Positions 18,001-21,000 of a stretch of 64,000 nucleotides of DNA are shown in pieces. Position 1 is the stretch's first letter; the number at the start of each line of letters is the position of its first letter. The position numbers are program-made. The stretch comes from Escherichia coli (GTDB lineage Bacteria > Pseudomonadota > Gammaproteobacteria > Enterobacterales > Enterobacteriaceae). The DNA is taken from NCBI RefSeq assembly GCF_041248615.1, contig NZ_CP158425.1, one strand, 5' to 3'.

Positions 18001-21000
18001 CATAAACGGACGTTGTAAGTTTGATGGCATCAAGCCGGAATGGTTATGTATGGGGATGGACGATTTTATCCATAAAGTCAAACAACGACGAGGGCTACGG
18101 TTGTTCACACCGGAGTCTGTTCAGCACATCTGTTCGGTGTTGAAGTCAACAAGGAAGTCGCCAGGGCTCTATACGGACCTTACTCATATTCACAACATAA
18201 CGACAAAGTACAAAGCCCCGATGAAATTCGAGCAACGAGTAACATACATTCTGCTCAACTTTATCCATTATCTGTGGGCAAGTCTGTTCACTAAGCAGAA
18301 GCCTTAGCGCTCTATCATTGGTAAGGCTGTAAAATGTCTGCAAAAGGCCCCATCGGTAAATTGTTGGGGCTTTTTCTTTGCGTAGTTCTGATACGGTTTA
18401 TCCTGTGGAGCATTATGGCCACCAGCCAGCTGGTGACTGGCCAACGCTTTGTATGACGTAGCCTACTCAGGGCAGGCTATTTTAGAGGGACCGATTTTTA
18501 TCCGGGCTAATTTAGAAAGAGATAATTTGAACTTAGGCGGGCTGACCACCAGCAGAGAGGTAAATCACTAGCCGGTGATATTGACAGAAGTCGTCAGGGG
18601 TTTAACGCCGGAATATTTTGCCAGGCCTCCTGCAAGGTCTGCAAGACTTCTACAAGTGATAGTGACGGCCACAGGACTGTTTCCGTCATTATCACTCCAG
18701 GTGGCTCGCACTCTACTGGTACCAGAATTAAAACAACACGAGTTCCTTTTACCTGGTAGGCAAGGTTTACTGCCGGTTGGCGGTAGGAGGCCAGTACACC
18801 CTCACCATATTGAGCAGGGTTACTTGCCCAGTTCCGCACCATTGCATACACCTGAGGCATATACCGACTATCCAGATCCCCTTTGGGCCGTCTGAACGGC
18901 ACGATTTCTTCTGAGCGGTAGGTGGTCGTTGTTGTATTGGTTGTCATCTTTGTCACCTCCCCTGTTCGTCCATTTAGAGTTTTAAGCTGCTTTACACATC
19001 ACACTCAACTGATTATTTAAGCTGGTCATCGTCTCTGGCCAGCATAGCCCAACCATTCGACTGGTTTTCGCGGGAGTAAGGATTCATTTCAAAATAACTA
19101 TCTACCGCGTCGCTGTCCGCAACAGAACTGTTGTTAGCTCTCTTTGAACCCTGAACCACTACAGCATCAACCTCTGCGGCTTTCCCGTTGCGCTGTACCA
19201 GGATTTTAACCGTCTTGGGCTTACGTCTTGCGAGCAGTTTGTTGGCGATAAAAAGCACAACAATCCAGGCCAAAAGCACGTATAAAAATTTATTCATAAT
19301 GCCCTCCTTTGTATGTGATTATTATACCTGCTTCCATTGCAGGCCAAACAGGTTCGGTGTATGAAAAATAGACTTCTCTCCGGCGTATAGCAATCTACTT
19401 ACTGATCTGTTTTCGTATCAAACTGTATGGCATAACCGAGGGGCGTACGTGGTGAGTCAGAAAGTTACTTTTCCGTAATAGTTAATTTCAGATCCTTCTT
19501 CCAGTTACGCTTCAGTATAAAACCGATACCCTCTAATTCAGCATCCTTCACGTTTAATACGCTTCACTTTAAGGCAGGGCTTTTCGGTTGATATGAATTC
19601 TTTTTCCGGTTGCTGGACATGGGTTTCATCCTGATAGTTAAAATTGCAGGCTATCAGTCACCACCACCACCTCCTCCTCCTCCTCCTCCACCGCCACCAT
19701 CACAACCACCAGCTATGCTATTTTCACCATTACAATCACCTCCGAGGGGGTTCAAATGGCTGCTCCCCTGTAGATGGTGTCCTTGCCAGATCGAACCCGA
19801 ACCAGCGCCTCCTGAGCGTCTTTGCTTGCCCTGAGGCAATTGTGCAGGCTCACCAGCACCGGCGGTCCCAAAAATGTCCCGGGCAATTTTATAAAGAAGG
19901 TAAAAAGGTACGCCCAGCATCATAAAAAAGATTACTGAAAATATTACACGTTCCATTGATGATCTCCTGTCTTGTGAGAGACCAGTTATATCAGGGTGAT
20001 TCAGTATTTCCGTTTAGAAAAGAGTACTAATTTGGCCCTGTTCGATCTTAATTTGCCATCCGGGAAAAAGTCATAGGGATAGGCCTGCCAGAGTCAATAA
20101 CTTCCAGTGATCTGGAGGAGACCCCGGCTCTCTGAGCCCTCATGGATGGTACGGCTTTACCCCCTGTAAACAGATTCACGTTCCGCAGGACAAACATCGA
20201 CTACTGACGTCTCATATTTGCTGACGCTAATCCGACGTCTCATTGCCGTCTGCTTGTTTTCTTTAAAGGGTGTATTAGACGAATATCAAATCGGAATGGT
20301 AGGGGATGTGTGGGCACCATGCCCGGCCCTCTTTGAGCATCTGAGAGATTGGAGACCTAGCCGGGTAAGATAGCTACTTTCTTACGGGTTACCCTTCAAA
20401 TCCAAAGACGAAACGGACGCTGCCGTTCTCCACGTGGAGACGCTTTACTTCTTCGACAAATTCCTGGATCACCTCTCCGGCGTTATCGGGTGGTATGGCT
20501 GACAAAATTTCTTCCGAAGTCAGCCATGAGTATGAATGTTCACCGAATAAATCATCATCTTCGGACGGTATATCATCAGGTAATCCGCGTAATGCGTGGA
20601 TAAAAACTGCTGATGTGCTCGCCCTTTCACGATCTACATCAAATCCGAGCCAGGCAAAGTGGAGATATGATCGGTCCCCTTTATAATTGCTTGATAAATT
20701 AATCCATTTACCAGGCTTTTCTTCCCTTTGAAATCGCCAGCAGATATCAACGCCCATTAAGAAACTCCATTACTATCGTTCGTATGAGATAACTATCATT
20801 TCAGAATACTATGACTTCTTCCCGTATAGAACTAATCGCTCACGCCAACTGGGCGAAGCCAACCGGTTCCGCCACTTCGCTCATTGGTTTTTAGGCGTAA
20901 GCACTGAAGCCAGTCTCCATGCTAACTGGCGAGCCTGCGAAAGTCAGACTCGTTGTTATAAAGCGGCATATCGTAAGCGGTGTCTGAAATGAACATGCGG

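Follow-up and report, generated by a model that had tools for sequence, protein, structure and literature searches.

A length-variable, frame-preserving glycine tract in a small predicted membrane protein of IncHI2 plasmids

The window (the whole 64-kb stretch of DNA that was analysed) is IncHI2 plasmid backbone with 100% identity to pSTM6-275, and its minus strand carries a 100-codon open reading frame (ORF; 19654-19956) that ends in a tract of 13 unbroken glycine codons. Among otherwise near-identical IncHI2 plasmids the length of this tract differs by whole codons, from 9 to 17 Gly. The ORF itself is dispensable, weakly constrained and restricted to IncHI2. We consider it probable that it is an accessory gene for a small single-pass membrane protein, the tail of which varies by slippage and drifts neutrally.

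The open reading frame and its predicted product

The ORF has an ATG start, and its coordinates include the stop codon. The product of 100 aa is listed in RefSeq as a hypothetical protein (WP_000442694.1) and reads MERVIFSVIFFMMLGVPFYLLYKIARDIF...IAGGCD-G13-D*. The Gly tract (residues 87-99; 19660-19698, minus strand) consists of GGT GGC GGT in its 5' part (19690-19698), a pure (GGA)6 sub-run (19672-19689) and a pure (GGT)4 sub-run (19660-19671). It is followed by a terminal Asp codon and the stop (19654-19659; GAC at 19657-19659, TGA at 19654-19656), which are present in all alleles read. An earlier note on this DNA had described a 13-residue poly-Gly tail; the 13 Gly codons are confirmed, but the protein terminates in G13-D, its last residue being Asp rather than Gly. 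The tract is the only period-3 tandem repeat in the window (TRF). The second-longest run of GGN codons on either strand has 4 codons, and the number of runs of 13 or more expected in the window from the GG/CC dinucleotide frequencies is ~3e-12.

The N-terminal transmembrane helix proposed in the same note is predicted both by hydropathy and by AlphaFold2. The 19-residue hydropathy window reaches its maximum at residues 4-22 (mean Kyte-Doolittle 2.24), within a hydrophobic core spanning residues 4-24, and AlphaFold2 places a single confident helix at residues 2-32 (19861-19953, minus strand; block-mean pLDDT 87-94 across residues 1-30). This helix is the sole confidently folded part of the model; past it the chain is disordered (pLDDT below 55). 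The prediction thus contains one hydrophobic helix of membrane-spanning length, as in a bitopic protein, and the product would probably insert into the membrane, with ~70 disordered, Gly/Ser-rich residues following the helix. An excess of Lys and Arg after the helix suggests that this tail may be cytoplasmic. Profile searches against Pfam, NCBIfam, PHROGs and PADLOC gave no match above threshold for the protein, the best family match being TMEM208_SND2 (E 0.12; 12.6 bits vs a cut-off of 22.9). A Hok-like type I toxin, a peptide of less than ~60 aa, was considered and rejected: the ORF has 100 aa and no Pfam or NCBIfam match, and no Rfam family reaches its gathering score between 17.5 and 22.5 kb.

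A Shine-Dalgarno sequence, AGGAG (19964-19968, minus strand), is located 7 nt 5' of the ATG, at ideal spacing, and is invariant in the relatives compared. The codon-usage log-likelihood of the ORF frame, +0.10 per codon, matches the level of real genes on the plasmid (annotated genes average 0.104 in frame) and is clearly the highest of the six frames, the remaining five reaching 0.011 or less. GC contents at codon positions 1, 2 and 3 are 0.59, 0.48 and 0.40, and a 100-codon open frame arising by chance in 1.1 kb has a rough expectation well under 0.1. These observations argue against the alternative that the ORF is untranslated or a decaying pseudogene, annotated by pipelines solely for its ATG and Shine-Dalgarno sequence, with the GGN tract being a microsatellite in a 1.1-kb non-coding spacer. 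We regard this alternative as unlikely but worth serious consideration, and return to it below; the ORF is probably translated. In-frame indels are uninformative in this respect, because a 3-nt unit yields them on either strand, coding or not.

Ribosome-binding site and codon usage also favour the minus-strand frame as the better coding candidate, in agreement with the earlier assessment. The opposite strand does encode the poly-Pro anticipated there, in a plus-strand ORF (19610-19834; 74 codons open, 74 aa, 13 Pro), but this ORF starts with TTG, shows no Shine-Dalgarno sequence upstream of that start when the sequence is read, and has no RefSeq annotation in any record examined. Over the overlap with the minus-strand ORF, the plus frames score at most 0.011 per codon and all three contain stop codons. 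Translation of poly-Pro depends on EF-P, and 13 consecutive Pro would cause the ribosome to stall. That the plus-strand ORF is a real gene is hardly credible.

Upstream of the ORF, TGATATAAC (19985-19993, minus strand) is a candidate extended -10 element, although the strict promoter scan was negative there. The scan for promoters and terminators detected neither a strict sigma-70 promoter serving the ORF nor a terminator following it. The 5' leader may form an 8-bp hairpin (19960-19984, minus strand), the 3' arm of which pairs the GGAG of the Shine-Dalgarno sequence, with a z-score that is not significant. A weak Rfam match, Mu-gpT-DE, overlaps this hairpin (24 bits vs a gathering score of 49), and no Rfam family reached its gathering score in the 17.5-22.5 kb region. 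RNA folds of the 5' leader and the 3' end were no better than those of shuffled sequences.

Alleles of the glycine tract

The locus was found in 978 IncHI2 plasmids of PLSDB. Comparison of related plasmids bears out the earlier suggestion that the tract could expand or contract while keeping frame: it varies from 9 to 17 Gly in whole-codon steps, and both pure sub-runs take part, with (GGA)2-6 and (GGT)4-11. There are at least 12 pure-tract DNA alleles among otherwise near-identical plasmids, every one in frame. Alleles with (GGT)4 contain (GGA)2, 3, 4, 5 or 6, those with (GGA)4 contain (GGT)5, 6 or 7, and (GGA)3(GGT)6 and (GGA)3(GGT)11 also occur, such that three distinct DNA structures encode G12 and two encode G13. 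Plasmids differing in the tract share 99.8-100% identity over the flanking 800 nt, and the tract is by far the most variable site at the locus. The tract is therefore a length-polymorphic in-frame microsatellite, with repeat numbers that differ between unchanged flanks.

Two alleles predominate among 976 PLSDB plasmids. The window allele is present in 471, and the Asp-interrupted R478-type allele, G6-D-G5-D, in 426; the remaining 79 plasmids (~8%) include approximately 16 with G12, 4 with G11, 7 with G5-D-G5, and at least one each with G9 and G17. The interrupted R478-type thus comprises the 426 modal copies and the ~7 G5-D-G5 copies, and the pure tract at least 12 alleles, figures that are uncorrected for phylogeny and sampling. 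In a large protein collection G11 was found on 210 contigs, G10 on 16 and G9 on 30; these counts come from exact-sequence look-ups, not from a true census, and show only that an allele exists. G13, G12, G14 and the R478-type were reported absent from that collection, yet they are present on RefSeq plasmids. Short-read contigs frequently end within the Gly run, which is ambiguous as a sign of variation within a single culture.

Whole-unit changes in both pure sub-runs are the pattern expected from slippage, which we infer to be the source of the variation. Misalignment of the pure (GGA)n and (GGT)m sub-runs by whole units as the plasmid replicates would lead to gain or loss of Gly codons with the frame unchanged, giving the tails of 9-17 Gly. 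All slippage alleles read from complete plasmids stay in frame and retain the terminal Asp and stop, and changes in the number of 3-nt units do not switch expression on or off. Asp-interrupted tracts are found in R478, in Lelliottia and in a Logan relative, and the tract of the most divergent relative reads G2-D-G3-D-G3-D. With the polarity taken from one outgroup sequence, the interrupted tract appears to be ancestral. The 13-Gly homopolymer is then probably derived, the tracts interrupted by Asp (GAC) would represent older lineages, and loss of the interruption may have produced a purer and less stable repeat.

It is also conceivable, though very improbable, that the run acts as nucleic acid, either by forming G-quadruplexes or by presenting (GGA)6 as an AGGAGG array that binds the anti-Shine-Dalgarno sequence, and thereby affects transcript stability, ribosome pausing before the stop, or DNA replication or transfer. 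When G-quadruplex terms are included, ViennaRNA predicts three two-tetrad quadruplexes in succession (-76 vs -31 kcal/mol without these terms), tandem AGGAGG motifs can be read inside (GGA)n, and the frequent ends of short-read contigs within the run are compatible with such structures. However, the quadruplexes come solely from model prediction and are of the weak two-tetrad type, and ordinary folding of the region does not outperform shuffled sequences (z = +0.64). Furthermore, nearly half of the plasmids have the interrupted tract, with only two consecutive GGA units, and no downstream ORF is located at a distance that the AGGAGG array could serve.

Conservation, disruption and the role of tract length

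No homologue outside IncHI2 was found by an exhaustive HMMER search of 1.84 billion representatives, by a word-indexed search of 5.8 billion proteins, or by tblastn against plasmids, and a phage collection gave no match. All protein and plasmid searches combined yielded only copies from IncHI2, variants due to assembly errors, and three Gly-rich giants that are spurious. The 122-aa upstream neighbour has 45%-identical homologues in IncHI1, where the genes downstream differ and no counterpart of the ORF is present at the syntenic position. The ORF shows no similarity to a 94-aa neighbour of like build. Among the neighbours, the four nearest match nothing in Pfam or NCBIfam, and nine neighbouring proteins tested gave no PADLOC match and, with PHROG, one ParB-like family and two families of unknown function. 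No mention of the RefSeq accessions was found in the literature, and searches on IncHI2 leading regions and on plasmid poly-glycine slippage produced no relevant paper.

These neighbour family searches bear on whether the product could be a Gly-rich microcin or RiPP precursor resembling McbA, as its richness in Gly, Ser and Cys and its long Gly run might indicate. No modification, export or immunity gene is located nearby, and the N-terminus is a predicted membrane helix rather than a leader peptide. The missing partner genes effectively refute such a precursor, and we assign it a negligible probability.

The ORF is poorly conserved. It diverges by 5.1%, vs 6.1% for the downstream spacer, and its substitution rate is about that of the adjoining spacer and above that of neighbouring genes. 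Distinct changes relative to two relatives are 6 synonymous and 9 non-synonymous, a synonymous share (6/15 vs ~25% by chance) that is not significant (estimated p ~0.15). L006, the sole clearly divergent relative, has a 1-nt deletion at codon 80, which puts the Gly tail out of frame. Tn10 has inserted at CGCTCAGGA (19810-19818, minus strand; ORF nt 139-147, codons 47-49), a 9-bp site duplicated by the insertion, and splits the ORF in R478, the conjugative prototype, as well as in many still-conjugative relatives; the truncated product is found in 717 blocks of the protein collection. In addition, a block of hypothetical genes adjoining transfer region 1, the B1 region, is deleted in some of the evolved clones of one IncHI2 plasmid (PMC9599605, PMC11575406). 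The ORF probably lies within this block.

The spacer-like substitution rate, the non-significant 6:9 ratio, the L006 frameshift, the Tn10 split and the orphan status without any family match would fit an untranslated ORF or decaying pseudogene. Against this reading stand the coding signals and the fact that 878 of the 976 plasmids share at least 99% identity over residues 1-86, although this is mostly a result of how little the backbone varies. We favour a weakly constrained gene over a spurious one.

For such a gene, length variation could in principle be adaptive, with the number of Gly residues setting the activity of a membrane protein that has a role such as establishment, exclusion or host interaction, and with variants being selected. 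The extreme variability of the tract relative to the rest of the locus, the recurrence of equal lengths from different DNA structures, and the terminal Asp and stop that are never lost would fit such tuning, which we nevertheless regard as improbable. A 3-nt unit does not permit on/off switching, one allele is dominant in each lineage (471 and 426 of 976), the tail is predicted to be disordered, Tn10 disrupts the gene in plasmids that are still conjugative, and L006 does not read the tail in frame. More specifically, we can only speculate that the co-oriented array of small genes adjoining the transfer region is expressed early, and that the tail length sets the strength of an early-made membrane protein and thereby serves as a heritable knob helping the otherwise near-invariant IncHI2 backbone to adjust to new hosts; the chance of this is slim.

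Because the gene can be dispensed with and is little conserved, its variation resembles ordinary slippage at a repeat rather than a working switch. One dominant allele per lineage, together with the Tn10 knockout in R478, means that nothing indicates a consequence of the length variation, although selection for a preferred length could equally be the cause of the dominant alleles. Neutral drift, which is assumed here, seems the most likely explanation.

Significance and comparison with known systems

IncHI2 plasmids play a major part in carrying mcr-1, mcr-9, carbapenemase and heavy-metal resistance genes, and their backbones are near-uniform, which makes related plasmids hard to distinguish. 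With its 12 or more alleles in a near-invariant backbone, the microsatellite could be a cheap VNTR-type marker for plasmid sub-lineages. Care is needed in its use, since the tract is a frequent break, or a possible miscall, in short-read assemblies. The locus may also offer a natural example of an interrupted repeat that turns pure and then unstable, and it lengthens the list of unstudied small ORFs for predicted membrane proteins on plasmids of clinical importance. The findings give no hint of a new mechanism.

McbA, the precursor of microcin B17, contains a run of about ten Gly. Like McbA, the product described here is small, plasmid-encoded and rich in Gly, Ser and Cys, with a long unbroken Gly run. 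In contrast to McbA, it has no leader, no mcbBCDEFG-like neighbours and no sequence similarity, and its Gly run is C-terminal, after a predicted membrane helix.

Interruptions generally stabilise microsatellites. The few variants of the R478-type and the at least 12 alleles of the pure tract fit this rule in counts that carry no correction for phylogeny or sampling.

Contingency loci of Haemophilus, Neisseria and Campylobacter undergo phase variation by slipped-strand mispairing. The Gly tract resembles them in being a simple repeat within a gene, with the same putative slippage mechanism. However, contingency loci have units of 1, 2, 4, 5 or 7 nt, or repeats in promoter spacers, which lead to on/off changes, whereas the 3-nt unit of the Gly tract keeps the frame constant.

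Coding microsatellites are found in the Ser-Asp repeats of the staphylococcal Clf/Sdr proteins and in the size-variable Vlp lipoproteins of Mycoplasma. Those proteins are surface-exposed and have a known role, often with an adaptive rationale, whereas the ORF described here encodes a 100-aa orphan whose homopolymeric Gly tail lies at the very C-terminus, and is apparently dispensable. What it shares with them is a repeat unit that is a multiple of 3 nt, a frame-keeping length polymorphism among close relatives, and variation that is focused in the pure part of the repeat.

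Coding strand and predicted product

The earlier note described a small minus-strand ORF ending in 13 glycines, and ORF listing and translation confirmed this description. The Gly-tail ORF (19654-19956, minus strand; ATG start, 100 codons) encodes MERVIFSVIFFMMLGVPFYLLYKIARDIFGTAGAGEPAQLPQGKQRRSGGAGSGSIWQGHHLQGSSHLNPLGGDCNGENSIAGGCD, followed by 13 Gly, a single Asp and TGA, with the Shine-Dalgarno sequence AGGAG (19964-19968) located 7 nt upstream of the ATG. On the same strand, the Gly run is composed of GGT GGC GGT (19690-19698), (GGA)6 (19672-19689) and (GGT)4 (19660-19671). 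It is the sole period-3 tandem repeat reported by TRF in the 64-kb window, and GGN runs elsewhere, on both strands, span at most 4 codons. Because only ~3e-12 GGN runs of 13 or more codons are expected from dinucleotide frequencies, the tract is a repeat expansion rather than a chance run.

The preference of the earlier note for the minus strand over the poly-Pro strand was borne out by codon score, GC by codon position and AGGAG. Using a codon-usage log-likelihood trained on 37 annotated genes of the window, codons 1-86 scored +0.10 per codon in the minus frame, equal to the in-frame mean of the training genes (0.104), and at most 0.011 in the other five frames, which contain stop codons. GC content at codon positions 1, 2 and 3 is 0.59, 0.48 and 0.40. 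The opposite-strand poly-Pro ORF (19610-19834, plus strand) is unlikely to be a real gene, as it has a TTG start, no Shine-Dalgarno sequence and a codon score resembling that of non-coding sequence.

As judged from structure prediction, the product probably crosses the membrane once and carries a disordered tail rich in Gly and Ser. Residues 4-24 are strongly hydrophobic, and AlphaFold2 (single sequence) predicts one confident helix (residues 2-32) and no order beyond, with block-mean pLDDT values of 87-94 for residues 1-30 and 45-54 thereafter. More Lys and Arg residues follow the helix than precede it, which suggests a cytoplasmic tail. No curated family in Pfam, NCBIfam, PHROGs or PADLOC covers the protein. 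That it might be a microcin precursor is unlikely; a microcin or RiPP precursor was ruled out for lack of a leader and of partner genes. A type I toxin was also rejected.

At the RNA level, the (GGA)6 run forms a tandem AGGAGG Shine-Dalgarno-like array a few codons upstream of the stop. ViennaRNA with the G-quadruplex option predicts three consecutive two-tetrad quadruplexes in the mRNA-sense tract (19660-19698, minus strand), but we consider it improbable that the G-rich RNA acts as a quadruplex or an anti-Shine-Dalgarno binder. In the 5' leader, an 8-bp hairpin (19960-19984, minus strand) takes up the GGAG of the Shine-Dalgarno sequence in its stem; its fold is no better than that of shuffled sequences, and one pair is disrupted in a divergent relative. 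A weak, sub-threshold Rfam match to Mu-gpT-DE (24 bits, E 0.022) lies over it (19954-19996, minus strand).

Tract alleles and their frequencies

Tract length varies among related plasmids, as the earlier note had anticipated, and always by whole codons. Complete plasmids and assemblies with flanks 99.8-100% identical to the window carry at least 12 pure-tract DNA alleles, encoding 9-17 Gly. Written as the DNA 3' of GGT GGC GGT, these include (GGA)2(GGT)4 (9 Gly), (GGA)3(GGT)4 (10 Gly), (GGA)4(GGT)4 (11 Gly), (GGA)5(GGT)4, (GGA)4(GGT)5 and (GGA)3(GGT)6 (12 Gly each), the window's own (GGA)6(GGT)4 and (GGA)4(GGT)6 (13 Gly each), (GGA)4(GGT)7 (14 Gly) and (GGA)3(GGT)11 (17 Gly), together with a point-change allele, (GGA)6 GCT (GGT)3, and GGT(GGA)5(GGT)5 from an odd Logan assembly. 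Since G12 is reached by three DNA structures and G13 by two, both pure sub-runs must have changed repeatedly. Such in-frame, recurrent changes in both sub-runs are the signature of the slipped-strand mispairing that the earlier note proposed.

The other main lineage, that of R478, has an Asp-interrupted tract, (GGA)2 GGT GAC GGA (GGT)4, encoding G6-D-G5-D; minor variants have a single GGA unit (G5-D-G5-D) or, in Lelliottia, five GGT units. In the most divergent relative found, a 1-kb Logan contig of ~94% identity, the tail DNA reads GGT GGC GAT (GGA)2 GGT GAC GGT GGC GGT GAC, which would give G2-D-G3-D-G3-D in the tail frame. With polarity taken from this one outgroup, the sequences suggest that the tail originally mixed Gly with Asp and became the homopolymer of the window when the interruption was lost.

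Of the 976 PLSDB records that contain the locus, queries with short allele-specific sequences assigned 471 to the window allele G13, 426 to the R478-type allele and 79 (8%) to other or partial alleles; the last group includes ~16 G12, 4 G11, 7 G5-D-G5-D and two G14, with G9 and G17 present at least once each. Exact look-ups in a large protein collection found G11 on 210 contigs, G10 on 16, G9 on 30, G9-A-G3 on 54 and G6 on one; because this collection returns the commonest alleles as absent, its counts prove existence, not frequency. No other site of the locus is nearly as variable as the tract. Even so, the tract is stable enough for a single allele to dominate each lineage and is no fast switch, and adaptive tuning of tail length is unlikely.

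Short-read contigs very often terminate within the (GGA)n run (19672-19689). More than 650 contigs carry partial proteins (86-94 aa), and four independent Logan contigs all end at ...GGTGGAGGAGGAGG. These ends could stem from G-rich sequencing error or poor coverage, or from samples that contain a mixture of tract lengths.

Plasmid setting and constraint

The 851 bases around the ORF matched 978 PLSDB plasmids at 95-100% identity, nearly all conjugative IncHI2 (MOBH, MPF_F), from Escherichia, Salmonella, Enterobacter, Klebsiella and Citrobacter; no phage record matched. The window has 100% identity to pSTM6-275 (NZ_CP019647.1), where the ORF already carries a RefSeq annotation, as hypothetical protein WP_000442694.1. 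We found no paper on the ORF or its tract polymorphism.

The ORF lies just beyond the plus-strand relaxase operon (mobI, mobH, traD, S49 peptidase, NERD protein), in a ~30-kb minus-strand run of co-oriented small genes without known function (18594-49808) that points back to the mobI/relaxase end. This run, which includes a ParB-like 394-aa protein, an orphan DNA methyltransferase, an HNH endonuclease, hok and a 794-aa PAPS-reductase-family protein, has a layout like that of a plasmid leading or establishment region. It also encodes a 93-aa hypothetical protein (32372-32653, minus strand) with a PLSDB resistance prediction of 'Brucella suis mprF' at 100% identity; the label looks like a database artefact rather than a sign of a real MprF. 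Elsewhere in the window, an 81-nt unit in ~10 copies (60939-61772; periods 162 and 243 were scored too) and a 21-nt unit in ~3.8 copies (63589-63667) could be iteron-like or partition-site repeats.

Unusually long spacers flank the ORF (19298-19653, 356 nt; 19957-20388, 432 nt), and neither contains inverted repeats or promoter or terminator consensus matches serving it. Within the downstream spacer is a conserved mini-ORF of 21 codons, MKPMSSNRKKNSYQPKSPALK, whose ribosome-binding site is poor. The next gene downstream (19013-19297, minus strand) encodes a 94-aa protein that is built alike: its N-terminus is a hydrophobic helix, and it has a basic patch (ARRKPK) and an acidic, hydrophilic tail. 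It shows no sequence similarity to the Gly-tail protein.

In R478, the conjugative reference of the group, Tn10 lies inside the ORF. The 9-bp target duplication CGCTCAGGA (19810-19818, minus strand) corresponds to ORF nucleotides 139-147, and 717 blocks of the protein collection list a 64-aa variant in which codons 1-49 read through into an IS10 end. The region is split in ~5% of PLSDB IncHI2 records. Because Tn10 splits the ORF in R478, the full-length protein is dispensable for replication, maintenance and transfer of that plasmid. The ORF probably belongs to the large hypothetical-gene block adjoining transfer region 1; some evolved clones of pJXP9, an IncHI2 plasmid, had lost this block (PMC9599605, PMC11575406).

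Searches beyond IncHI2 found no homologues in Pfam, NCBIfam, PHROGs or PADLOC, in 5.8 billion clustered proteins, in PLSDB (tblastn) or in 1.84 billion representatives (exhaustive HMMER). In IncHI1 plasmids, the upstream neighbour has a homologue of 45% identity, and the ORF has no counterpart. Against the two informative relatives we counted 15 distinct changes, of which 6 are synonymous and 9 non-synonymous (dN/dS ~0.5, not significant). Divergence from the Logan relative is 5.1% in the ORF and 6.1% in the downstream spacer; from the Lelliottia plasmid it is 1.9% in the ORF and 0.3-1.1% in neighbouring genes. In the Logan relative, a 1-nt deletion at codon 80 puts the tail out of frame. By sequence comparison, constraint appears weak: the ORF is an orphan, diverges nearly as much as spacer and is frameshifted in a relative. 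The main rival explanation, an untranslated ORF with the tract as a non-coding microsatellite, has to be weighed between this weak constraint and the gene-like codon score; we regard it as a minority possibility.

Proposed origin and comparison with known systems

On balance, we lean towards a young, lineage-restricted and weakly constrained accessory gene for a putative membrane protein with a codon-wise slipping tail. A microsatellite would encode the protein end and slip by whole codons, and the resulting variation in tail length would be neutral drift. In practice, the tract would offer a VNTR-like marker in an otherwise uniform IncHI2 backbone and calls for caution with assemblies at 19660-19698. 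The tract behaves like in-frame coding microsatellites, that is, length-polymorphic low-complexity regions. It falls outside the definition of contingency loci, because changes in units of 3 nt leave the reading frame as it was.
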